Shown here one piece after another: positions 4,592-63,474 of a DNA stretch of 64,000 nucleotides. Source of the DNA: an uncultured Actinomycetes bacterium (GTDB lineage Bacteria > Actinomycetota > Actinomycetes > UBA12327); contig CAIXNN010000036.1 of the NCBI GenBank assembly GCA_903920865.1, positions 27,165-91,164 of the forward strand, given 5' to 3'. Under the pieces are notes generated by a model. That model was not told the DNA's origin, made no database searches, and saw only the letters and a list, made by a program, of their open reading frames with translations. Every line of letters starts with the position of its first letter. Within the stretch, counting starts at the first letter, position 1. Position numbers and translations under genes: made by a program.

Positions 4592-5386
4592 TCCATCCTT
4601 GGCCGGCCACACCCCATCGGCGGTGACCAAAACGGCTACCGAAAATCCTCGGTCCTGTGCTGTGGTGGCCGCGGCGGCGCCACGAGTAAAGGCTGAATCA
4701 AGGTGGTTGGGATCAACCCAGCCCCGCGTTCGCATCGGAACCGCTAGAGCTCGCATCCCCACCTCATGGTGGCTGGCCAAGGCCGTGCGGAAAGTCGTTG
4801 AGCCCAGCAAAGTGATCACATCGCACGAACCCATCGGGCGCAAGGTCTGGGACGGGTCACTCTTGTGGCGCTTCGAAGCCAACTGAGCCATCGTGTCCAA
4901 GTAGTCCAGAGCCGATTCCCAGCATCGCTGTGGATCAAGGTCCAGGATCTCCAACAGTCCGGCCGGGACCACCGTGGCCTGTCGTTGCAGGTGCAACTGT
5001 TCTTTGATGCCTAATCCACGATGGATTAGTTCACCCGGGACTACATCGCGCACCCATTCCTGGCCTGGGTGATTGTCACAGTCATGGGGAAGGGCAATGA
5101 CGCAAAACTGATCAAAGAAAGCAGAGCTTTCAAGAGTTACTGCGCTGTCACACAGATCCCGAGCCAACGTGAACCATTGAGTAAGTGCCGAGCGAGTAGC
5201 TGTATTTGTTGGATCGTCGGTTTCCCCAACGATGCCGGCCACGCGCTCCCAGGAAATGAAAATGTCTTTGCTTGCATTGGTTCCCGGTGTTGCCGGAAGA
5301 ACGACGCCACCTGCATGGGGCGTGAGATCAACGCCATCAAGGACGCAGACCATCAGGACGGCCTGGCGCAATTGGGTAGGGGTCAT
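4547..5386 (-). CDS. Hypothetical protein; true start uncertain, may be an internal Met
   Basis: The only protein-like ORF in the dxs-FTR1 gap. Composition is consistent with coding, unlike the Arg/Pro-rich shadow ORFs on the other strand. No motif I can assign. Its 3' end overlaps the dxs 3' end by 45 nt, convergently. Confidence 0.35.
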
Positions 5387-5455
5387 GTCAACACGGTAGC
5401 AAGGTGCAGCGCAGATTCTTACTCAACTGCTTGCGCCAAATTAGTGATTGACTCA

Positions 5456-6322
5456 TTAAGACTTCACTGCTTTGGGGGATTTAGCCGGCGAATCCGGCGA
5501 ATCTGACGCCTTCGACGACGACGCCGCTGACATTGGCCGGAAGTAGGCAAAGGTCACTGATGCAACAAAGCACACCCAGACCACGACTTGGAGGACGGTG
5601 GTCTTGGCGTTGAAGTTGATCGTGCCTTCAAGCAGAGCCCCGTACCAAGAATTCGGATTGATGGTCGAGCTGACATCGAACGCCAAATTTTCTGCGCCAG
5701 GCAGCCAGCCAATTTCTTGGAATTCGTGGACTGCGGCACTGAGCACTCCGGCTGCAACGATGATTAAGAATGCTCCAGTCCAGCGAAAGAATACGGAAAG
5801 GTTGATCTTTACCGTGCGCTTGTAGAGCAGGTAGCCAAGTACCACCGAAGTAGCAAGCCCAAGGGCTGCGCCAATGATGGGAATGGCGGTATCCCCGGTG
5901 GCTTTGATCGCCGACCAGATGAAGATGGCGGTTTCAAACCCTTCGCGGGCCACAGCGATAAAAGCAAGGGTGATCATCGCGGAGGTGCCGACCACGAGCG
6001 CTTCATCAACCTTTTCTCGAAGTTCACCGCTAATGGTTGCCGACACCTTCCGCATCCAAAAAATCATCCAGGTGACGCCGGCAACGGCGAGCAACGAAAC
6101 CGTGCCTGTGAAGGCTGGTTCGAACTTAGCGGGAAGGTTGGTTGACGTCAGATCGATCAGGGCTGCGAAGATCAAGCAGGCCACGATGGCCAAACTCACG
6201 CCGGTCCACACCGCTCGCACCTGTTCGCGGCGATCAATTTTGATCAGATGGGCGATCAAAATTGACACCACGATGGCCGCTTCGAGGCCTTCACGAAGCC
6301 CGATCACGAAGTTGCCCAGCAT
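5456..6322 (-). CDS. FTR1/EfeU-family high-affinity iron permease
   Basis: 288-aa polytopic membrane protein with two RExxE motifs (REGLEAA near the N-terminus, REGFETA mid-protein), diagnostic of the FTR1 iron permease family. No efeO/efeB partner genes are adjacent. Confidence 0.8.
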   Translation of the reverse strand: MLGNFVIGLREGLEAAIVVSILIAHLIKIDRREQVRAVWTGVSLAIVACLIFAALIDLTSTNLPAKFEPAFTGTVSLLAVAGVTWMIFWMRKVSATISGELREKVDEALVVGTSAMITLAFIAVAREGFETAIFIWSAIKATGDTAIPIIGAALGLATSVVLGYLLYKRTVKINLSVFFRWTGAFLIIVAAGVLSAAVHEFQEIGWLPGAENLAFDVSSTINPNSWYGALLEGTINFNAKTTVLQVVVWVCFVASVTFAYFRPMSAASSSKASDSPDSPAKSPKAVKS

Positions 6323-6351
6323 GTGTTCCGCCTATGGTTAAAACGCTCTAC

Positions 6352-6370
6352 TTAGGTAATCCTAAGTTTA
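6352..6370. promoter_or_regulatory. Candidate DtxR/IdeR-type iron box upstream of the FTR1 permease gene
   Basis: Sequence TTAGGTAATCCTAAGTTTA (local palindrome CTTAGGTAATCCTAAG) lies 30-48 nt upstream of the permease start codon. It matches about 14 of 19 positions of the consensus iron box TTAGGTTAGCCTAACCTAA, recalled from memory. Confidence 0.35.
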
Positions 6371-6372
6371 TG

Positions 6373-7680
6373 TCATTCAGGTGCGGATTGCCCATCTGGC
6401 TGGCTTGATGGGCTTGGTAGCGGCTGCGGTGCCTGTCCGGTCTGGCTGGCCGTGGCGATGGCGCTGCAGATGGCTTCCACGGTCAAGTTGCGCTGCCAGG
6501 GGCGGGCTCCCCAGGTGGTGAGAAATTCATCGGCTGCCTGGGCATCGGGGTTGTCATCGTTAGACCACGGGGGAGTCCAACAAAGCCGCCGCAGATAGTC
6601 AGGAGTGAGCAGATTTTCCACCGGAATGTTGTGCCGTTCACCAAGTTCTGTTACGACGTGGCGAGCGGCAGCCAATCGCAGCGCCGCTGACTTGTCGCGC
6701 TCAGGCCATGCGCGCGCAGGGGGCGGACTATCGGAAGGAACTGAGGGAGCCGGCCACTGTTGCGCTGAAAGTTGGAGGGCGGCGTTAACTGCGCCCAGCC
6801 ACTTGCGCGTATTGCGTTGCGCACCTTTGCCTTTAAATCCATCAAGCACGATCAGCTCGGCTTCGGTCTTGGGTGCGGCCAGAGCAGCCTCAACGATGGC
6901 GATGTCTTGCAGGATTCGCCCAGGAGCGATGTCTCGTTGTTGCGCAATCTCATCGCGGGTTTGCCAAAGCTGCCTAACGATGGCAAGTTGCTGGCTTTGA
7001 CGCACCCGATGAAGACCAGAGACTCGTCGCCAAGGATCAACTCGAGGTTCGGCTGGCGGGGCATTGACGATAGCTTCGAATTCTTCTTGCGCCCATTGGG
7101 TTTTCCCTTGATCTTCAAGGTCTTTGGCTAACGCATGGCGCAATTCGATAAGCACCTCAACATCGAGCACGGCGTAGCGCAACCACGGCGCCGGAAGCGG
7201 GCGGGTGGACCAGTCTGCGGCGCCGTGCCCCTTTTCAAGTCGAAGGCCTAAGACCTCCTCAACGAGTGGTCCGAGCCCAACTCTTGCCTTGCCGGCAATG
7301 CGGCCGGCAAGCTCGGTGTCGAATAAAGAGGTCGGACTCATGTCAAGTTCACGCAGGCAGGGAAGATCTTGCGAAGCTGCATGCAAAATCCACTCGGTTC
7401 CTTCAAGTGCGTCATGGACCGAGCGAAGGTGATCGAGATTGATCGGGTCGATCAGGAAACTTCCGGCACCTTCGCGCTTAAGTTGCACCAGGTAGGCGCG
7501 TTGCCCGTAGCGATAACCAGACGCCCGCTCGGCGTCAATGGCAACCGGACCGGTCCCGCCGGCAAGCGCGCGGGCTGCTGCCTCAATTTCTGATGCATTT
7601 GAGAGAACCAGTGGCACCCCGCCGGCTGGTTCGAGCAAAGCAAGCTCAACAGCTGCTGGTACGGGCTGAACTTCGGTCAT
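6373..7680 (-). CDS. rnd: Ribonuclease D-like 3'-5' exonuclease with HRDC domain
   Basis: 435 aa. The N-terminal DEDDy-type exonuclease region (AIDAERASGYRYGQRAYLVQL) is followed by an HRDC-like helical region. Its position next to dxs matches the Rv2681/Rv2682c arrangement. Confidence 0.8.
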   Translation of the reverse strand: MTEVQPVPAAVELALLEPAGGVPLVLSNASEIEAAARALAGGTGPVAIDAERASGYRYGQRAYLVQLKREGAGSFLIDPINLDHLRSVHDALEGTEWILHAASQDLPCLRELDMSPTSLFDTELAGRIAGKARVGLGPLVEEVLGLRLEKGHGAADWSTRPLPAPWLRYAVLDVEVLIELRHALAKDLEDQGKTQWAQEEFEAIVNAPPAEPRVDPWRRVSGLHRVRQSQQLAIVRQLWQTRDEIAQQRDIAPGRILQDIAIVEAALAAPKTEAELIVLDGFKGKGAQRNTRKWLGAVNAALQLSAQQWPAPSVPSDSPPPARAWPERDKSAALRLAAARHVVTELGERHNIPVENLLTPDYLRRLCWTPPWSNDDNPDAQAADEFLTTWGARPWQRNLTVEAICSAIATASQTGQAPQPLPSPSSQPDGQSAPE

Positions 7681-7785
7681 TGGACAAACTTAGGTGCAGG
7701 CGTGGTGGAGATTGTTCAGGCGCACCCACGCGGCTCAACGGCCTCAGTGCTAAGGCAAGGTGGTTGACTGACGTGAGGTCGGGCC

Positions 7786-8418
7786 TTAGGTGATTAAGCC
7801 GGCTCGAAGAGCCAGGACCACCATCTCGGCGCGGTCTCCAGTTCCAAGCTTGCGGGCAATGCGCGCAAGGTGACTTTTAACCGTCAATGCTGACAGACCC
7901 AAGGCTTGTGCGACGTCGCGATTTCCTTGACCTTCTGCCACAAGATGTAGAACTTCAATTTCTCGATCTGAGAGTCCATCGGGTCCGATCGGATCACTGG
8001 TTTGGGGAGTGATGATGGTGACGTTGCCCGATAGTGGACGCGCTTGAATGCGTTCTGGATGGGTCACAACGTAACCGTGGATGCCAGCAGCTAAGGCAGT
8101 GCGCACCGAGGATGCGTCATCACTTGGCCCTAGAACAACCCCGCGCTGCCAGCCAGCTCGTCGAAGTTCGGTGACCAGTGCCACTCCACTTCCATCGATC
8201 AACGTGCTATCTGCAATGACTAAATCACCTGGATCAATGGTCAAAGATTGGGAACGAGCTCCGGCCAGGCTTGTGGTTTCAAAGATTTCTCGGGCCCCAA
8301 GGGAGTGCAACCGACGAACCAGCGCACCACGAACGGCAGGGCGACTAACTGCAACAAGGGCAGTAAATTGGCCCGCACGATTGACCGGGATCAGAGGGCG
8401 CTCCGACAGGGCGGTCAT
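7786..8418 (-). CDS. LuxR-family transcriptional regulator (GerE-type HTH, receiver-like N-terminus)
   Basis: C-terminal LSDREIEVLHLVAEGQGNRDVAQALGLSALTVKSHLARIARKLG is a classic LuxR/GerE HTH. The N-terminal ~120 aa are receiver-like, but I could not confirm a phospho-acceptor Asp. Confidence 0.75.
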   Translation of the reverse strand: MTALSERPLIPVNRAGQFTALVAVSRPAVRGALVRRLHSLGAREIFETTSLAGARSQSLTIDPGDLVIADSTLIDGSGVALVTELRRAGWQRGVVLGPSDDASSVRTALAAGIHGYVVTHPERIQARPLSGNVTIITPQTSDPIGPDGLSDREIEVLHLVAEGQGNRDVAQALGLSALTVKSHLARIARKLGTGDRAEMVVLALRAGLIT

Positions 8419-10610: not shown

Positions 10611-11126
10611 CTACGGACCAGTGGGAACGACAAATCCAGGGTTTTGACCACCTGGATTAATTGATCCGCTCTGGGCTGGTACCTGAATCGGTGCTTGGGT
10701 TTGCGCCGGGGCAGGGGTCGAACTTCCACCGGTCAGTGCGCGAATACCAAAAAATGCGCCAGCGATAACGGCGATTGCCACCAGCGCTGTCACGATGATG
10801 TTTCCGCGCGAGAAGCGAGATTTTTTCTTGACCGGAGCCAGCTGACTTGCTGCTGGAGCTGCACCTGACTCGTCAGGTGAACTAAATGGACTGGCCGGCG
10901 GCGCAGGCGCAACGGGCGGAGGCAACGTTGATGTGGCTACAGCTGTCGCTGGTGTGACCGCTGGCGCTGCCAGCGGGGCGGGCTCGGCTTGATGACCGGT
11001 CCAGTCATTGCCATCCCAGTACTGAATCAGGGCAGGGTTGTCTGGGTCTTCATACCAGCCAGGAATAGGCGCTTGCTGTGTGTCGCCCATCTTTACTTCC
11101 TCCCCATTGGAGTGCCTAGGTAACAA
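10611..11126 (-). CDS. DUF2510-like motif protein with C-terminal transmembrane anchor
   Basis: N-terminal GWYEDPDNPALIQYWDGNDWTG motif, then a Pro/Ala-rich linker and one hydrophobic helix. The start is probably the Met at 11090 (MGDTQQ...). Confidence 0.6.
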   Translation of the reverse strand: MLPRHSNGEEVKMGDTQQAPIPGWYEDPDNPALIQYWDGNDWTGHQAEPAPLAAPAVTPATAVATSTLPPPVAPAPPASPFSSPDESGAAPAASQLAPVKKKSRFSRGNIIVTALVAIAVIAGAFFGIRALTGGSSTPAPAQTQAPIQVPAQSGSINPGGQNPGFVVPTGP

Positions 11127-13849: not shown

Positions 13850-14731
13850 ATGAAATTTCCAACGTTGCATGTGGGTCGGGGTAGCCAAGTCGGGCCTTTG
13901 ACAGTTTTCCCACTGTGGGCAAACAAGCCCGCGCCGACGAAGCGCTTTTTCAGCAACAAGTCAGGGTCCTTGGCGGTCGCCGAACGCGAAGGCGCACCGG
14001 TGGTTGGCGAACTAGTAGTGAGCAACAACAGTGACGCGCCGGTTCTGCTGTTGGCTGGCGATTTACTTGAGGGTGGTTGGCAGCATCGTGTGATTTCCGA
14101 GCCAGTGCTCATCGCGGCCGGTGCATCAGAAGTAGTCAATGTCAATTGCGTCGAACGTGGTCGTTGGTCTGGTGCCGGGGAGCAGATCAACCGTGGACGT
14201 AAGACTGGTCCACGCCTTCGTTCCAAACTTGAAGCGTATGAACAACTCAAGCAACAAGAAGTCTGGGCAGAAGTTGATCGTTTTTCCACCTCCCAATTCA
14301 CTTCCAAGACTGCCTCTTACATTGACTACTTGAACTTGGTGGAGGAGCAGGCCGTGGGTAGCGACGTACGCCCGCTCGATGGTCAAGTAGGAGTTGTTGT
14401 GGCGGCAAATGGTCACCCGGTCATGCTTGAGGTTTTCGCCACGCACGAAGATTTGGTGCAGGCCTGGGACGCGCTCATTGGCGGCGCCTTGGCAGATACT
14501 CGTGGGGTTCGCTCCGTGCGCACTCCGTCTCGACGCATCCACCGCTTCATTGACGGTTTGGAGTCCGTTGAGCTCAGCCGCAGTTCCAAAGCTGGTTTGG
14601 CCGACAAGGTGGTCGGTCAAGGTGAGGCCGAGGGCTTATTCACCTCGATTTCGTGCGTGGAATGGGATGAGGAATTGGTGCACCTGCTGGTTCTGAATCA
14701 GCGCCACGATCTGTTTGCTGACGCGATCTAA
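13850..14731 (+). CDS. Hypothetical protein (293 aa), family unknown
   Basis: ATG with strong RBS GGGAGGAG. Coding-like composition. No catalytic or binding motif I recognise; no TM segment or signal peptide. Confidence 0.6.
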   Translation: MKFPTLHVGRGSQVGPLTVFPLWANKPAPTKRFFSNKSGSLAVAEREGAPVVGELVVSNNSDAPVLLLAGDLLEGGWQHRVISEPVLIAAGASEVVNVNCVERGRWSGAGEQINRGRKTGPRLRSKLEAYEQLKQQEVWAEVDRFSTSQFTSKTASYIDYLNLVEEQAVGSDVRPLDGQVGVVVAANGHPVMLEVFATHEDLVQAWDALIGGALADTRGVRSVRTPSRRIHRFIDGLESVELSRSSKAGLADKVVGQGEAEGLFTSISCVEWDEELVHLLVLNQRHDLFADAI

Positions 14732-14769: not shown

Positions 14770-15141
14770 TTGGTTGTGGGCTGGCAAATTAGGCGCTCAA
14801 AGTACTTTGGGCCATTTCGAGTTTCGCTGACCAAGCGTGGTCTTTCGGGTTCGGTTGGTATCCCAGGTTTTCGGATGTCAACAAATACCCGTGGCCAGGT
14901 GCGGCGAACTGTTCGCATTCCTGGAACTGGTATTTACAACACCAAAATTCTGAACCCCAAAAGCTCTTCGAGTGCGGCCCGAAAGTCCAAGGCGCCAAAA
15001 AGGGCACCTGCCACTGCCACGCAGGCACACCCCGAACAACCACCACCGCCATCGGCACCAGCCAGTTGGTATCCAGATCCGCAGGGGGTTGCCACCTGGC
15101 GCTGGTGGGATGGCCAGGTCTGGACTCAGCACACGGCCTAA
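14770..15141 (+). CDS. DUF4236-like N-terminal domain fused to a DUF2510-like C-terminal motif
   Basis: TTG/GTG start region 14770-14776. N-terminus RRSKYFGPFRVSLTKRGLSGSVGIPGFRMSTNTRG...IPGTGIYNT fits the DUF4236 pattern. C-terminus WYPDPQGVATWRWWDGQVWT is the DUF2510 motif. A Pro/Lys-rich linker separates them. Confidence 0.65.
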   Translation: MVVGWQIRRSKYFGPFRVSLTKRGLSGSVGIPGFRMSTNTRGQVRRTVRIPGTGIYNTKILNPKSSSSAARKSKAPKRAPATATQAHPEQPPPPSAPASWYPDPQGVATWRWWDGQVWTQHTA

Positions 15142-15276
15142 AGAAACTCCTGTGCTGTCGGACCCTTGTTCTATAGTTGCAAACAGGTTATGAGTGAGCG
15201 TCGCATGTGGCCCCTTGGCCTTGTCGCTTCAGCAACCGCGCTTTCCCGCGCACGGTGCTTCCAAGGGTTAAACCGG

Positions 15277-15302
15277 CCGGGGAAGCCAATTGGCTTCCCC
15301 GG
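15277..15302. promoter_or_regulatory. Perfect 26-bp palindrome CCGGGGAAGCCAATTGGCTTCCCCGG; a second hairpin follows at 15309-15330
   Basis: Reverse complement is identical to the forward sequence. It lies 48 nt upstream of the phosphatase ATG and 135 nt downstream of the preceding stop. The next hairpin is GGGTTTTCTGCTGTGAAAACCC. Confidence 0.5.
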
Positions 15303-15350
15303 AAGCGCGGGTTTTCTGCTGTGAAAACCCTGATCGAAAGTTGATTTGTT

Positions 15351-15887
15351 ATGTCATCTGATGATGCTTTAGATGGTTTGTCCCCGCAATGGGTCGGCGC
15401 TGAAGACCTGGAATGGCTGCCTCATGAGATCTTGCCGAATCTGTTTATGGGCGGCACCGGTGATCTTGATGTGGTCACGGTTCCTAAGGACAATCCGGAC
15501 CTTATCGCCAATCATGGCTTTGACGCGGTGGTGACTTTGTATGCGCGAGCTCAACCGGTTGGCTGGGGAGTGGTGGAGCATCGTTTTGGTTTTCCCGATT
15601 CAATGCTCGCTCCCAAGGACAAGGGTCGAATCATTCAAGCTGCTCGCTGGACTCATGAACGTTGGAGTTCAGGCGATCGTGTCTTGGTTCGCTGTCAGGC
15701 GGGTTTGAATCGTTCGGGATTGGTCTTAGCTCTTGCATTGATGATCGAGGGATACACGGCCCAGGATGCAATCGAGTTGCTACGCCAACAGCGTTCGGAG
15801 TTCGTGCTGTGCAATCGCCAATTTGAACGCTGGGTGCAGACCGACGCACATGCTGACCTCTTTGGACAGGATGCGGACGGTGAGTGA
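15351..15887 (+). CDS. Small dual-specificity/tyrosine-type protein phosphatase (CX5R)
   Basis: 178 aa. The active-site P-loop VRCQAGLNRSG is C-X5-R followed by S/G. A candidate general-acid Asp sits in GFPDSM ~36 residues upstream of the Cys. Confidence 0.7.
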   Translation: MSSDDALDGLSPQWVGAEDLEWLPHEILPNLFMGGTGDLDVVTVPKDNPDLIANHGFDAVVTLYARAQPVGWGVVEHRFGFPDSMLAPKDKGRIIQAARWTHERWSSGDRVLVRCQAGLNRSGLVLALALMIEGYTAQDAIELLRQQRSEFVLCNRQFERWVQTDAHADLFGQDADGE

Positions 15888-16254
15888 AGTTTTGACGAAC
15901 TGTCGAGTCCATGGGGCGGGGCACTTCGGACACATGATGCACGAGTGGAAGGTGGTGGGGCCACTTACTGCCAAGCCCCTGCACAAGCGTGGTGTTGAAG
16001 TGCTCTGCCTTGAGGTGGTCGATGTGGTCAGCGACGAAAAAGGGGAATTCGCCATCGTCGAACTCGAGCGCATCGACGGCAAGCTCTTTGCTGGCTTTAC
16101 CCATCGGCCGGCGGACTTGATCAAACACATTGAACACGGGCACCCAGCGGTGTTTAAGAAGGGGATCGGGCGCCTGTTTTTTGAAACCGAGCACTTCATG
16201 ATCTCGAAAGTTCGTGATTTTAAGGATCGTGTGCCCTGCGCCCATGACGTCTAG
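15871..16254 (+). CDS. Hypothetical His/Cys-rich protein, translationally coupled to the phosphatase
   Basis: ATG 15871 overlaps the phosphatase 3' end by 17 nt. The 127-aa product has CRVHGAGHFGHMMHEW, HIEHGH and a C-terminal CAHD, suggesting metal binding. The antisense ORF 15631-16245 has a shadow-like Arg/Pro/His composition. Confidence 0.4.
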   Translation: MRTVSEVLTNCRVHGAGHFGHMMHEWKVVGPLTAKPLHKRGVEVLCLEVVDVVSDEKGEFAIVELERIDGKLFAGFTHRPADLIKHIEHGHPAVFKKGIGRLFFETEHFMISKVRDFKDRVPCAHDV

Positions 16255-16314
16255 CCCAATAAGAATAGCGATGCCGGATAACCAGCATCGCCTTTCTTAT
16301 TAATGGGTCGGGAG

Positions 16315-16602
16315 TTATTCCTGTTCGACGTACAGCTCAACGCGGGGGATGCCAATGACTCCGATGTTGTGCATGCGCTCGCGAAGCAGCGGATCATCGC
16401 GGAAAGCGGCGGCCTGGTCGCGGTTGGCAAATGTGTGGATCGCTGCGATGGTGTTGGGCGAGCCTTCCAAGCGGTACAGGGACTTGGAAATGTAACCGTG
16501 TGCTTGACGAAGGTCCTCTGCGCTCACATAGCCGGCGTACCAGATGTCGTAATCTTCGACGTCGTGTTGGATGAAAAGTGTTGCCATGATGTGTCCGCTC
16601 AT
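16315..16602 (-). CDS. Hypothetical small protein (about 90-95 aa)
   Basis: Coding-like composition (MATLFIQHDVEDYDIWYAGYVSAEDLRQAHGY...). Convergent with the phosphatase pair. A small alpha+beta stress-protein-like fold is a guess only. Confidence 0.4.
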   Translation of the reverse strand: MSGHIMATLFIQHDVEDYDIWYAGYVSAEDLRQAHGYISKSLYRLEGSPNTIAAIHTFANRDQAAAFRDDPLLRERMHNIGVIGIPRVELYVEQE

Positions 16603-19908: not shown

Positions 19909-19983
19909 GGGCGATTGGCGCAGTGGTAGCGCGCTTCGTTCACACCGAAGAGGTCACTGGTTCGAACCCAGTATCGCCCACCA
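19909..19983 (+). tRNA. tRNA-Val (anticodon CAC), CCA encoded
   Basis: Acceptor GGGCGAU/AUCGCCC, anticodon loop UUCACAC, T-loop GGUUCGAACCC, ACCA 3' end. The spurious ORF 19923-20156 covers it. Confidence 0.85.
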
Positions 19984-20080
19984 TTACAGCCATGTGTACC
20001 AAGGCTTGTCGCACCTTGAAACCATTCGCACCATGGGGAAGTCTGACTAAATTAAACGGCGGGAACTCGCGGCTTAGCTC

Positions 20081-22273
20081 CTACACCGCTGAAGCTTTCG
20101 CGCGGGCCTGCGCGGCAAGTGCTGCGCAGTGCGGGCAGTTATCGCCGCGCACATGAATATCCACGGGGCGAGGAGTCCACGATCCGTCGGCACCGTTTTC
20201 GCACGCCAGACAGCGCGCCGCAGTTGGGGTGTCATCGCTCTTGGGGTTTGCCAGCCACGTGAACGCCCCGTCGAGTGGGTCCTCTTTCGGCGTTGGTTGC
20301 CGCGCGCGCGAGACCAGATCGGCCACGACCGCAGCATTTTGAAGCGTGGTGATATCGCCCAAATCTCGACCTTCGCTGATGTCGCGCAGAAGACGTCTCA
20401 TGATCTTGCCCGAACCGGTCTTGGGCAGTTCATCGGTGATCACAATGGAGGACGGCCTGGCAAAGCGACCGATCCGACCGGCCACGTGATCGCGCAGTTC
20501 GGTGATCAATTCATCGCTTGGTTCAACCGAGTTCTTGAGCGTGACGAAAGCCGCGATTGACTGACCCGTCATTGGATCTGCACGACCAACTACCGCCGCC
20601 TCTGCCACCGCGTGGTGATCTAGAAGAGCGGCTTCGAGCTCAACGGTTGAGAGGCGATGGCCTGACACGTTCATCACGTCGTCGATGCGACCGACAACCC
20701 AGATGTAGTCATCGTCATCACGCCTTGATCCGTCGCCGGCTAGGTATCGCCCTGGGTATTGCGACCAGTAGGTCTTCAGATAGCGCTCGTCGTCACCCCA
20801 CAGCGTTCGCATCATCGCTGGCCATGGGCCATCAAGCATGAGCAAACCGCCCTGGCCTGATTCGACACTTGTGCCATCCTCATTGATGACGTCTGCGCGG
20901 ATGCCCGGCAGCGGGAATGTGGCTGAACCAGGCTTGAGTGGAACCGCCCCTGGAAGCGGAGCGATCATGATCATGCCGGTTTCGGTTTGCCACCACGTGT
21001 CGACAATGGGACAGCGCCCACCGCCGACGTTGGTGTAATACCAGTCCCAGGCTTCGGGCTTGATCGGCTCACCCACCGAACCCAGCAGACGCAGTGACGT
21101 GAGGTCGTGCTTCTGGAGGTGTTCAACCCCCCACTTCATGAAGGTGTGGATAGCAGTAGGCGCGGTGTACAGGATCGTCACGCCGTAGCGCTCGATGATG
21201 CTCCAAACGCGATCTTTGTCCGGTGTGCCAGGTGCGCCTTCGTACATGACTCCTGTGGTGCCGTTGGCTAGCGGGCCGTAAACGATGTAACTGTGACCGG
21301 TAATCCAACCGATGTCGGCCGCACACCAGTAAATGTCATCACTATGGATGTCGAAGACCTGGCGATGAGTCGTGGAGACACCGACGAGATATCCGCCGGT
21401 GGTGTGCAAGATGCCTTTGGGCTTTCCAGTGGTGCCGGAGGTGTAGAGCACGAAGAGGGGATCTTCGGCATCCATCGGTTCGGGATCACAGGTGTCAGGC
21501 TGGTTCGCAACGAGCTCGTGGTACCAGTGATCGCGTCCATCAACCCACTCAACGGGGCTGCCCGTTCGTCGAGTGACAACGACGTTGGTCACTGAAGGAC
21601 AGGTCAGGAGCGCTTCGTCAACTGGCCCCTTGAGCGCAATTGAGCGGCCGTGCCGCCACGACTCGTCCTGCGTGATGACTGTGGTGCAGACCAGGTCGTT
21701 GATCCGGTCAGCGATTGCGGTGGGACTGAATCCAGCGAAGACGACGGTGTGAGGTGCCCCGATGCGTGCGCAGGCCAGCATGGCAACCGGTAGTTCAGGG
21801 ACCATGCCCATGTAGATCGCCACGGGGTCGCCCTTGCGAACGCCCAATTCCCGCAGCGCGTTGGCCATGCGACAGACGCGAGCATGCAGGTCCAGGAAAG
21901 TGATCGACTCGGTTTCGCCGGGCTCACCTTCCCAAAAGTAAGCAACCTGGTCACCCTTGGTGGGAAGGTGACGATCAAGGCAGTTCACCGACACGTTCAA
22001 TTTTCCATCGACAAACCACTTGTAGAACGGAGCATTGGAGTCATCGAGCACCTGAGTCCAAGGAGATATCCAGTCGATGCTTTGAGCCTGTTCGGCCCAG
22101 TAGCCCGTGAGGTCCTGTTCGGCCTGCTTGTAGAGCGAGCGGTCGGTGATCGCCGAGTGGGAGACGAACTCGGCCGAGGGCGCAAACATGTGATCATCGG
22201 TTTGGATGACTTCGATCAGTGGACCGCTTTGCGTTGTCAAATCTGGCGCATCGGAGCCGGGCCTTTCAGCCAT
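20081..22273 (-). CDS. acs: Acetyl-CoA synthetase (AMP-forming) with a ~70-aa C-terminal Cys-containing extension
   Basis: AMP-binding core (YTSGTTGKPKG, PKTGSGKIMRR with the conserved regulatory Lys). After LGDITTLQNAAVVADLV the ORF continues ~72 aa with CLACENG...(21 aa)...CPHC. Confidence 0.9.
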   Translation of the reverse strand: MAERPGSDAPDLTTQSGPLIEVIQTDDHMFAPSAEFVSHSAITDRSLYKQAEQDLTGYWAEQAQSIDWISPWTQVLDDSNAPFYKWFVDGKLNVSVNCLDRHLPTKGDQVAYFWEGEPGETESITFLDLHARVCRMANALRELGVRKGDPVAIYMGMVPELPVAMLACARIGAPHTVVFAGFSPTAIADRINDLVCTTVITQDESWRHGRSIALKGPVDEALLTCPSVTNVVVTRRTGSPVEWVDGRDHWYHELVANQPDTCDPEPMDAEDPLFVLYTSGTTGKPKGILHTTGGYLVGVSTTHRQVFDIHSDDIYWCAADIGWITGHSYIVYGPLANGTTGVMYEGAPGTPDKDRVWSIIERYGVTILYTAPTAIHTFMKWGVEHLQKHDLTSLRLLGSVGEPIKPEAWDWYYTNVGGGRCPIVDTWWQTETGMIMIAPLPGAVPLKPGSATFPLPGIRADVINEDGTSVESGQGGLLMLDGPWPAMMRTLWGDDERYLKTYWSQYPGRYLAGDGSRRDDDDYIWVVGRIDDVMNVSGHRLSTVELEAALLDHHAVAEAAVVGRADPMTGQSIAAFVTLKNSVEPSDELITELRDHVAGRIGRFARPSSIVITDELPKTGSGKIMRRLLRDISEGRDLGDITTLQNAAVVADLVSRARQPTPKEDPLDGAFTWLANPKSDDTPTAARCLACENGADGSWTPRPVDIHVRGDNCPHCAALAAQARAKASAV

Positions 22274-62737: not shown

Positions 62738-63048
62738 GACCAATTTAAGGCCGGCTTCGTGGCCACTTTTGTGCCTGCAGGGCCCGATTTTCGTGCCTAG
62801 CGGCTCGGATCGGGAAAATTTCTCAAAAAACTTGTGAAAAAGCACTCAAGGTTTTCACCCAACTGGGCGAAGTAATACCTGTCAGTGAGCTACCCGGCCA
62901 GAAAGGGCACACCCACCGAGAGGTGGGGTCGCAAAGCCAGGGGACCGCACCCGCGGTCAGCCCAGCTACCTCGGTTGGTACTTCGAAAGAAGCACCGGTG
63001 GGGACCAGAAGCCGAAGCTCTAGGTTCACCCAGAAAGGGACCATCCCG

Positions 63049-63474
63049 ATGCTCGCTCGCATCCGCAAGTCCATGGAGGAGAAGGACCAGGGCTTTACCC
63101 TGATCGAGCTCCTGGTGGTCATCATCATCATTGGCATCCTTGCCGCTATCGCAATTCCCGTCTTCCTCAATCAGCGCAAGAAGGCAACTGAAGCATCAAT
63201 GAAGGCAGACCTTCGTTCAGTTGCTAATGAGATGGAGACCTACTTCGTCGATAACCAGGCATATCCAGTTCCTGCTCAAGCAGCTGCAGGTGCCTCAGTC
63301 ACAGTGGGTACAACCACTGTCAAGGTGTCTTCACCTAACACCGTCGTCGCAAATCAGACCGGCACTGGCGTCGTCGCCGGTACCTACTGCCTCAAGGCCA
63401 CCAACAGTGGAGCCAGCGGTACGTGGTACTACGACAGCGACGGTGGAGGAATTAACAACACCGGTTGCGTCTGA
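63049..63474 (+). CDS. Type IV pilin (prepilin with class III signal peptide), probable major pilin
   Basis: The ORF is open from 62923; the start is taken at ATG 63049 after AAAGGGA. Leader MLARIRKSMEEKDQG, then FTLIELLVVIIIIGILAAIAIP (G-1/F+1/E+5). Cys pair in GTYCL...NTGCV. C-terminus TWYYDSDGGG. Confidence 0.8.
   Translation: MLARIRKSMEEKDQGFTLIELLVVIIIIGILAAIAIPVFLNQRKKATEASMKADLRSVANEMETYFVDNQAYPVPAQAAAGASVTVGTTTVKVSSPNTVVANQTGTGVVAGTYCLKATNSGASGTWYYDSDGGGINNTGCV

Follow-up and report, generated by a model that had tools for sequence, protein, structure and literature searches.

Systems centred on an ADP-ribosylglycohydrolase (ARG) are predicted to counter viral ADP-ribosylation; ARPP, as defined by Iyer, Burroughs, Anantharaman and Aravind in 2022, accompanies ARG and enzymes of the superfamily named rhodanese-phosphatase (R-P), and the same systems also hold repressors (NrtR or WYL), chaperones (vWA or TY-Chap), HAD-type 5′-nucleotidases, nucleases of the restriction endonuclease (REase) fold and helicases (PMC9503650 section 3.8). 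Here we describe a locus on a 64,000-nt stretch of contig CAIXNN010000036.1 (the window), from an uncultured Actinomycetes bacterium, in which a small Cys-based phosphatase gene stands close to an ARPP-1 gene and overlaps the start of a second, orphan gene (the partner). The phosphatase gene is preceded by a riboswitch of the S-adenosylmethionine (SAM)-IV class, which was reportedly described by Weinberg et al. in 2007/2008. SAM-IV elements that have been characterised lie in front of methionine genes, such as that of the O-acetylhomoserine sulfhydrylase MAV_4315 (PMC3774663).

The anatomy of the locus (Table 1), the conservation of each of its parts and the context of the phosphatase family are established by the analyses given below. 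We favour, tentatively and stopping short of calling it probable, a reading of the locus as a SAM-repressed two-gene cassette, in which a phosphatase of a conflict-system family is combined with a clade-specific partner. An earlier, sequence-only reading of this DNA had proposed a small CX5R phosphatase translationally coupled to a His/Cys-rich, possibly metal-binding protein. It missed the SAM-IV riboswitch, the ARPP-1 neighbour and the setting of the family in conflict systems and phages; the riboswitch, lying outside both its coordinates and its reasoning, became central to our interpretation.

Table 1. Features of the phosphatase locus and its surroundings (positions are those of the window).
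Feature	Position	Strand	Basis or properties
ARPP-1 gene	13850-14731	+	Pfam PF20208, E 1.5e-53, residues 6-281
DUF4236 + DUF2510 small protein gene, between ARPP-1 and riboswitch	14770-15141	+	Pfam, E 9e-13 and 1e-7
SAM-IV riboswitch aptamer (Rfam RF00634), phosphatase 5′ leader	15186-15313	+	Rfam scan
8-bp hairpin GGGUUUUC/GAAAACCC, candidate expression platform	15309-15330	+	overlaps aptamer 3′ tail
Cys-based dual-specificity-fold phosphatase gene, 178 aa	15351-15887	+	Pfam, PHROG, alignment, AlphaFold2, Foldseek
Orphan partner gene, 124 aa, start GTG 15880	15880-16254	+	dN/dS, alignment, gene callers
Hairpin between convergent genes	16258-16301		20-nt arms, 85% complementarity, 4-nt loop
Convergent 95-aa open reading frame	16315-16602	-	83-93% identity in all close relatives

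The first gene of the pair encodes a protein with the P-loop RCQAGLNRSG, containing Cys115 and Arg121, and here the sequence-only reading, which had pointed to the motif VRCQAGLNRSG in a 178-aa open reading frame (ORF) and to an upstream Asp as general acid, was right. The acid is Asp83 of a GFPD motif, 32 residues before Cys115, a spacing equal to that between D92 and C124 of VHR. The protein matched the Pfam families DSPc (PF00782; 37.8 bits versus a cut-off of 33.5, E 2e-9) and Y_phosphatase (25.0 versus 20.9 bits, E 1.7e-5), as well as PHROG 10650, ‘dual specificity phosphatase’ (E 1.4e-16). A search of 5.8e9 proteins returned 1578 homologs. Freshwater metagenomes supplied most of these; a few belong to named actinobacteria, Demequina and Friedmanniella among them. 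When 24 homologs, 42–87% identical to the query, were aligned, the P-loop R114-C115-Q-A-G-x-N-R121-S-G, S122 and D83 proved invariant, so the catalytic Cys and Arg are conserved as the earlier assignment implied. When PDB sequences were searched with a profile, the best matches were Thermococcus Tk-PTP (5z5b, E 9e-12) and ShufPTP, followed by DUSP22 and PRL phosphatases, and D83 lined up with the IPD motif of Tk-PTP. The AlphaFold2 model (pLDDT 80.5, pTM 0.79) has the topology of dual-specificity phosphatases (DSPs); its Foldseek matches in the PDB were DUSP15, DUSP22, DUSP5 and Tk-PTP (E ~1e-8, TM 0.6–0.8), the top ones all being DUSPs or Tk-PTP at a probability of 1.00. Ratios of nonsynonymous to synonymous substitution rates (dN/dS) of 0.05–0.07 were obtained against the related loci L008, L009 and L011, where dS exceeds 1, and of 0.14 against the near-identical L005. 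Homology and model together make a sound case for a DSP-fold Cys phosphatase that is predicted to be catalytically competent. Taken alone, it adds an unremarkable new member to a large known family.

We characterised the context of this family by clustering the genes around phosphatase homologs in 83 reference-genome loci. A 444-aa vWA protein was encoded directly upstream of the homolog in 42 of them; TY-Chap3 was a neighbour in 19 loci, ARPP-1 in 13, NrtR in 11 and FGase in 8, and WhiB, sigma-factor, HAD-type 5′-nucleotidase (NT5C), helicase and HDAC-like genes were found as well. Both orders of ARPP-1 and phosphatase occur among the 13 loci, and in four (L030, L039, L063 and L068) the two genes directly adjoin. 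Locus L068 (positions 26–2970), from an Aurantimicrobium metagenome-assembled genome, holds in series ARPP-1, the phosphatase homolog and a 556-aa ARG::DSPc fusion whose gene overlaps that of the homolog; this row ties the phosphatase family directly to ARG. Genes for vWA, WYL, TY-Chap3, DUF6361, helicases and PDDEXK nucleases accompany the nearest outgroups, which are 54–58% identical. In L171, there is a 4-nt overlap between TY-Chap3 and the stop of the phosphatase gene, in the position that the orphan takes in the window. These neighbourhoods match the component list of the published systems (PMC9503650 section 3.8), and the ARPP association of such phosphatases is itself already published. 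Judging by the homologs collected, the family would be actinobacterial and actinophage, with its other members residing in predicted NAD/ADP-ribose conflict systems or in phages.

The partner gene starts within the last codons of the phosphatase gene. Position 15880 is a start codon common to the relatives, GTG in the window and ATG in L006, L008, L009 and L011, and creates an 8-nt overlap with the phosphatase stop that reads GTGAGTGA in the window and ATGAGTGA in these four loci. An AGGA motif lies 9 nt upstream, and public gene calls place the start at the same position. The sequence-only reading had begun the downstream ORF at ATG 15871. Such a codon does exist, 17 nt inside the phosphatase ORF, and opens a 127-aa frame with the His/Cys clusters that had been quoted, but it is limited to the window and L005, while the conserved start is 15880. 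We rejected ATG 15871, along with the longer starts of some database entries (MLTC...), since the DNA 5′ of 15880 evolves in the phosphatase frame, with HADLFG of the phosphatase kept through synonymous changes. The stop/start overlap, being conserved in diverged relatives, is consistent with the translational coupling of the two genes that had been suggested.

Substitution patterns identify the coding frame. By the Nei-Gojobori method, dN/dS in the partner frame was 0.09–0.11 at dS of 1.2–1.4, versus 1.1–2.3 in the minus-strand frame and 1.3–7.6 in the shifted plus-strand frames. Third codon positions of the partner frame account for 53–57 of the 82–86 substitutions, and the frame is open and free of indels in five diverged relatives. 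Relatives whose phosphatase is 87–88% identical to that of the window share 75–77% identity in the plus frame and 47–55% in the minus frame. The 204-aa ORF on the minus strand (15631–16245), which we considered as the real gene, was accordingly rejected as a shadow ORF. GC content by codon position could not separate it from the partner ORF because the second positions of the two coincide. By these criteria of molecular evolution, the downstream plus-strand ORF is a real protein-coding gene under purifying selection.

Homologs of the partner are few: 11 clusters at 63–88% identity in the search of 5.8e9 proteins, 2 representatives, all of its own family, when a profile hidden Markov model was run over 1.84e9 representative proteins, and 3 loci in a scan of JGI metagenomes. 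Contigs with the partner keep the gene order DSPc, partner ORF, convergent 90-aa ORF and pabB/pabC. Unlike the large phosphatase family, the partner is, as far as these collections indicate, confined to one narrow clade; the pairing foreseen by the sequence-only reading is conserved, and its second member selected as a protein, within that clade only. The partner matched nothing in Pfam, PHROGs, NCBIfam, PADLOC or PDB sequences. Structure prediction, which had confirmed the DSP fold of the phosphatase, yielded no usable fold for the partner (pLDDT 36.8 from a 9-sequence alignment). An hhalign comparison with 60 clusters of neighbour genes from related loci, including TY-Chap3 and a 110-aa family that comes after ARPP-1, gave probabilities of no more than 2.2% throughout and of 0.1% for TY-Chap3. 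The 3′ end of the gene varies: the window copy ends at a TAG (16252–16254) where relatives read TCG and run 9 codons further (MSxNEKSDAE), and in these relatives the additional codons lie in the left arm (16258–16277) of the terminator hairpin. With a dN/dS of ~0.1 and no relatives that could be detected, the partner is a clean example of a protein-coding gene that is young and restricted to one lineage.

Comparison of the window with L005 revealed a single difference across the 3′ end of the phosphatase gene and the 5′ half of the partner gene, in the part compared. From ~16085 on (about 16090), L005 turns to L008/L011-type sequence (L005:1038–2008). This pattern suggests a recombination breakpoint inside the partner gene.

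The SAM-IV aptamer scored 55.5 bits versus a gathering score of 38 and covers model positions 1–116 of 116; it lies on the same strand as the phosphatase gene and ends 37 nt before its ATG at 15351. The leader is ~95% identical in L005 and L008–L011, even though synonymous sites in the flanking genes are saturated (dS >1), and in relatives a G insertion in one arm of the P5 stem is offset by a C insertion in the other. Across 14 instances, 95.8% of cells were paired and 24 of 32 pairs had changed on both sides, versus 35–45% paired in a slid-partner control; the alignment was fitted to the model and is hence biased toward structure. The P5 stem of the aptamer accounts for a perfect 26-bp palindrome at 15277–15302 that we had first taken for a possible operator or terminator. 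The hairpin that overlaps the aptamer tail retains its stem and varies in its loop among relatives. It is followed by no U-tract and went uncalled in the terminator scan; therefore, the leader would act through translational control or Rho-dependent termination.

The riboswitch-then-phosphatase arrangement is kept in six loci, or about three species-level lineages, of one narrow clade. Beyond this clade, we found no SAM-IV directly upstream of phosphatase homologs, and none in L170 or L171. A candidate in L078 was a partial 21-bit match to our own covariance model, built from the leaders of the window clade, and was discarded as unconfirmed by Rfam. In the literature, we found neither a SAM-IV before such a phosphatase cassette nor the partner gene.

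The same covariance model also detected SAM-IV in other loci, eight of them Rfam-confirmed. All eight lie within 5 kb of phosphatase homologs in Nanopelagicales/Planktophila loci (L014:1602–1720, L024:2631–2749, L062:2582–2703, L051:818–933 and L021:1–105 on the minus strand, L086:9279–9400, L087:3611–3732 and L026:7750–7866 on the plus strand). They are followed by small uncharacterised ORFs, such as a family starting with MEANERKYFEIPANFYDL and 111–161-aa Cys/His-containing proteins, or, in L026, by a short 56-aa ORF and then an HD-type protein; a methionine gene stands behind none of the eight. Since these loci are syntenic, they are non-independent, and enrichment is unproven. The recurrence of SAM-IV elements before small uncharacterised genes in Nanopelagicales islands would accord with a broader, non-metabolic regulon of SAM-IV in freshwater Actinomycetota, a speculation tied to the sensor version given below.

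How the parts might work together can be outlined as follows. The SAM-IV leader, the phosphatase gene, the overlapping orphan and the hairpin at 16258–16301 would form one unit transcribed as one mRNA; the 8-nt overlap of the partner start with the phosphatase stop argues for a single message and for probably coupled translation. SAM riboswitches as a class are OFF switches, so the pair is expected to be repressed while SAM is plentiful and would be made when SAM falls. The riboswitch would thereby occupy the regulatory position held elsewhere by NrtR or WYL repressors, and the orphan the overlapping downstream slot held by TY-Chap3 in relatives. The phosphatase would take the terminal phosphate off an ADP-ribose-derived sugar phosphate or a phosphoprotein via a thiophosphate intermediate on Cys115, and the orphan might serve as its substrate adaptor or regulator, presumably in a physical complex with it.

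Such wiring is unusual: a metabolite riboswitch with a well-defined methionine regulon stands before a phosphatase of a conflict and phage family. If the riboswitch gates the cassette, the SAM status of the cell would be linked to a signalling or defence-type phosphatase, and limitation of SAM or methionine would offer an experimental handle for switching on a member of an ARPP/R-P phosphatase system. We also considered a version in which SAM-IV is the sensor of a conflict system, replacing NrtR/WYL, and in which the cassette, silent at normal SAM, is released once a phage depletes SAM, for example with a SAM lyase that lets it evade restriction-modification or BREX, or by a high demand for methylation; the cassette would then guard SAM homeostasis. 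We found nothing in the literature that links SAM riboswitches to phage defence or SAM lyase, and regard this version as highly doubtful.

Several observations count against the conflict-family cassette that we favour. Of the context described above, the window holds only ARPP-1, the DUF4236 gene and the phosphatase. Genes for ARG, vWA, NrtR, TY-Chap3, HDAC, FGase and NT5C were not found in the 64 kb, where tblastn with the ARG of L068 as a query also returned nothing; WYL was absent from the gene calls of the near-identical locus L001, the window itself not having been searched for it. The locus can therefore be no more than a reduced relative of the published systems, and these are themselves computational predictions. 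PADLOC has no model for any gene of the cassette region. The orphan is unrelated by sequence to TY-Chap3 or to the neighbour families, and a chaperone or adaptor role would be assigned to it by the analogy of its position. Moreover, a SAM riboswitch points more naturally to methionine or sulfur metabolism, and its arrangement with the phosphatase is limited to the few lineages counted above.

This last consideration leads to the main rival, which takes the locus for a conventional part of the SAM regulon. At low SAM, the phosphatase would dephosphorylate a small-molecule intermediate supplying methionine, SAM or sulfur metabolism, such as O-phosphohomoserine, pAp or a phospho-sugar from methionine salvage, and the partner would be a second enzyme or a cofactor-binding subunit. 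DSP-fold enzymes can use non-protein substrates, the partner is His-rich (11 of its 124 residues, 8 of these conserved), and SAM-IV stands directly before the cassette genes just as characterised SAM-IV elements stand before methionine genes. A core metabolic pair, however, would not be limited to a small clade and have an orphan as its second gene. All family members examined elsewhere lie in conflict-type or phage contexts, none of them beside methionine or sulfur genes, and the neighbours in the window are ARPP-1 and the DUF4236 gene rather than met or cys genes. We consider a purely metabolic role unlikely.

A further rival, built on the sequence-only reading, is a generic minimal protein phosphatase complexed stoichiometrically with a His/Cys-rich partner that binds a metal (Zn or Fe). 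The conserved start/stop overlap accords with this idea, and so do some residues of the partner, a soluble, near-neutral protein: in the numbering of the 127-aa ORF, C11, H18, H21 and H24 (C-x6-H-x2-H-x2-H) and C123-x-H125 are kept wherever covered, and H38, H78, H86 and H108 are conserved too. Other parts of the proposed site vary. H14, C46, H89 and H91 are not conserved, and the HIEHGH cluster of the window protein reads HIDDGD or HVEAGD in relatives. Moreover, the mean column identity of the partner alignment is 82%, so the conservation of 10 of 14 His/Cys represents no clear enrichment; the family, at 74–88%, is too little diverged for it to be discriminating. There is no match to a metal-binding family and no confident structure. 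A metal site in the partner is thus a weak idea on the present alignment, and a metalloprotein complex of this kind seems to us improbable as an account of the locus.

The phage side of the family suggests yet another origin. Homologs of the phosphatase at 46–56% identity are found on 108 IMG/VR contigs, and in 61 of 80 viral loci that were fetched (L090–L169) an HDAC-like deacetylase gene comes directly after the phosphatase gene. In L093, this pair (4932–6372 and 6403–7797) adjoins the large terminase subunit, and the freshwater viral pair has the appearance of a phosphatase-deacetylase module borne by phages. More distant DSPs occur in cultured phages of Gordonia and Mycobacterium. DUF4236 matches many PHROGs (PHROG 33669 at E 7e-19 for the window protein), and a tRNA-Val/Cys/Gly cluster lies 420 nt downstream of the cassette on the minus strand. 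The cassette could accordingly be cargo, an actinophage remnant or a moron beside a tRNA cluster, that serves the element and not the bacterium carrying it, for instance in superinfection exclusion or host takeover. However, there are no integrase or structural phage genes near the cassette, and the genes around it are of housekeeping type (SelR, RibD_C, pabB/pabC and SsgA), with synteny conserved across relatives. GC content stays level throughout the region. A search of the 80 viral loci (694 kb) brought up no SAM-IV, and the viral versions are paired with the HDAC-like gene that the window lacks. Phage cargo is, in our view, a very unlikely explanation.

Finally, the possibility that the downstream ORF is no gene, being a chance ORF in a 3′ untranslated region or the shadow of a real minus-strand 204-aa gene, could draw on the uninformative codon-position GC and on the lack of a family, structure or distant homolog, yet it is refuted by the dN/dS values, the excess of third-position changes and the intact frame described above, and we assign it next to no probability.

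Around the cassette, ARPP-1 has the same orientation as the phosphatase gene and ends 620 nt upstream of it, and the DUF4236/DUF2510 gene that follows it is found in all close relatives. In L011, the DNA for the C-terminal end of the latter contains a tandem duplication of ~55 nt. It is one of two small protein genes with DUF2510 within 5 kb, the other lying at 10611–11126 on the minus strand. On the downstream side, the terminator scan called the minus strand of the hairpin at 16258–16301 terminator-like, and this element probably closes the cassette as an intrinsic terminator working in both directions. The convergent ORF behind it matched nothing in Pfam, PHROGs or NCBIfam.

Two more distant features of the window were recorded. 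Strains differ downstream of tRNA-Val(CAC), as seen by comparing window positions 19909–22273 with L001:10868–12537. At this site, L001 has a 425-aa ORF and a nuclease-type gene (SNIPE/T5orf172/MUG113); the window and L002 have directly a minus-strand gene of 699–730 aa, which is acetyl-CoA-synthetase-like in the window. It looks like a strain-variable insertion site. A riboswitch of the cyclic di-GMP-I class was detected at 62896–62973 on the plus strand (55.5 bits versus a gathering score of 35), at the 5′ end of a gene for a type IV pilin-like protein (N_methyl and ComP_DUS; ORF 62923–63474).

Compared with known systems, each element of the locus has described counterparts from which it departs. 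The window phosphatase has the fold and size of atypical DUSPs and archaeal protein tyrosine phosphatases (PTPs), namely DUSP15, DUSP22/JSP-1, DUSP5, Tk-PTP (5z5a/5z5b) and ShufPTP, and shares with them the CX5R(S/T) P-loop and the Asp general acid 32 residues before the Cys. Identity to these proteins is merely 16–25%; its family has an invariant Arg before the catalytic Cys (RCQAGLNRSG), where DUSPs and PTPs usually have His, and also carries a conserved xAPRWV segment at the N-terminus and, at residues 41–53, an insert modelled with low confidence. DSPs of actinophages, comprising PHROG 10650, the ‘PTPc tyrosine phosphatase’ of Gordonia and Mycobacterium phages and proteins of freshwater uncultivated virus genomes (UViG), belong to the same family at 29–56% identity. 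The IMG/VR copies come without ARPP, riboswitch and orphan; the window has all three and lacks the HDAC-like gene. As in the known SAM-IV class, the window element is a full-length aptamer with a conserved core and covarying helices, 5′ of an actinobacterial gene. Known members precede genes of methionine or cysteine biosynthesis, whereas this one, whose ligand is a prediction, precedes a DSP phosphatase and an orphan. Closest in gene content are the ARG-centred systems (PMC9503650), where an R-P phosphatase is coupled to ARPP as in the window and where homologs of the window phosphatase at ~50% identity are embedded with the components of these systems. The window differs from them in having no ARG, protein transcription factor or recognisable chaperone of the vWA, TY-Chap or SseB kind: where its relatives have a repressor and TY-Chap3, it has a SAM-IV riboswitch and an orphan gene.

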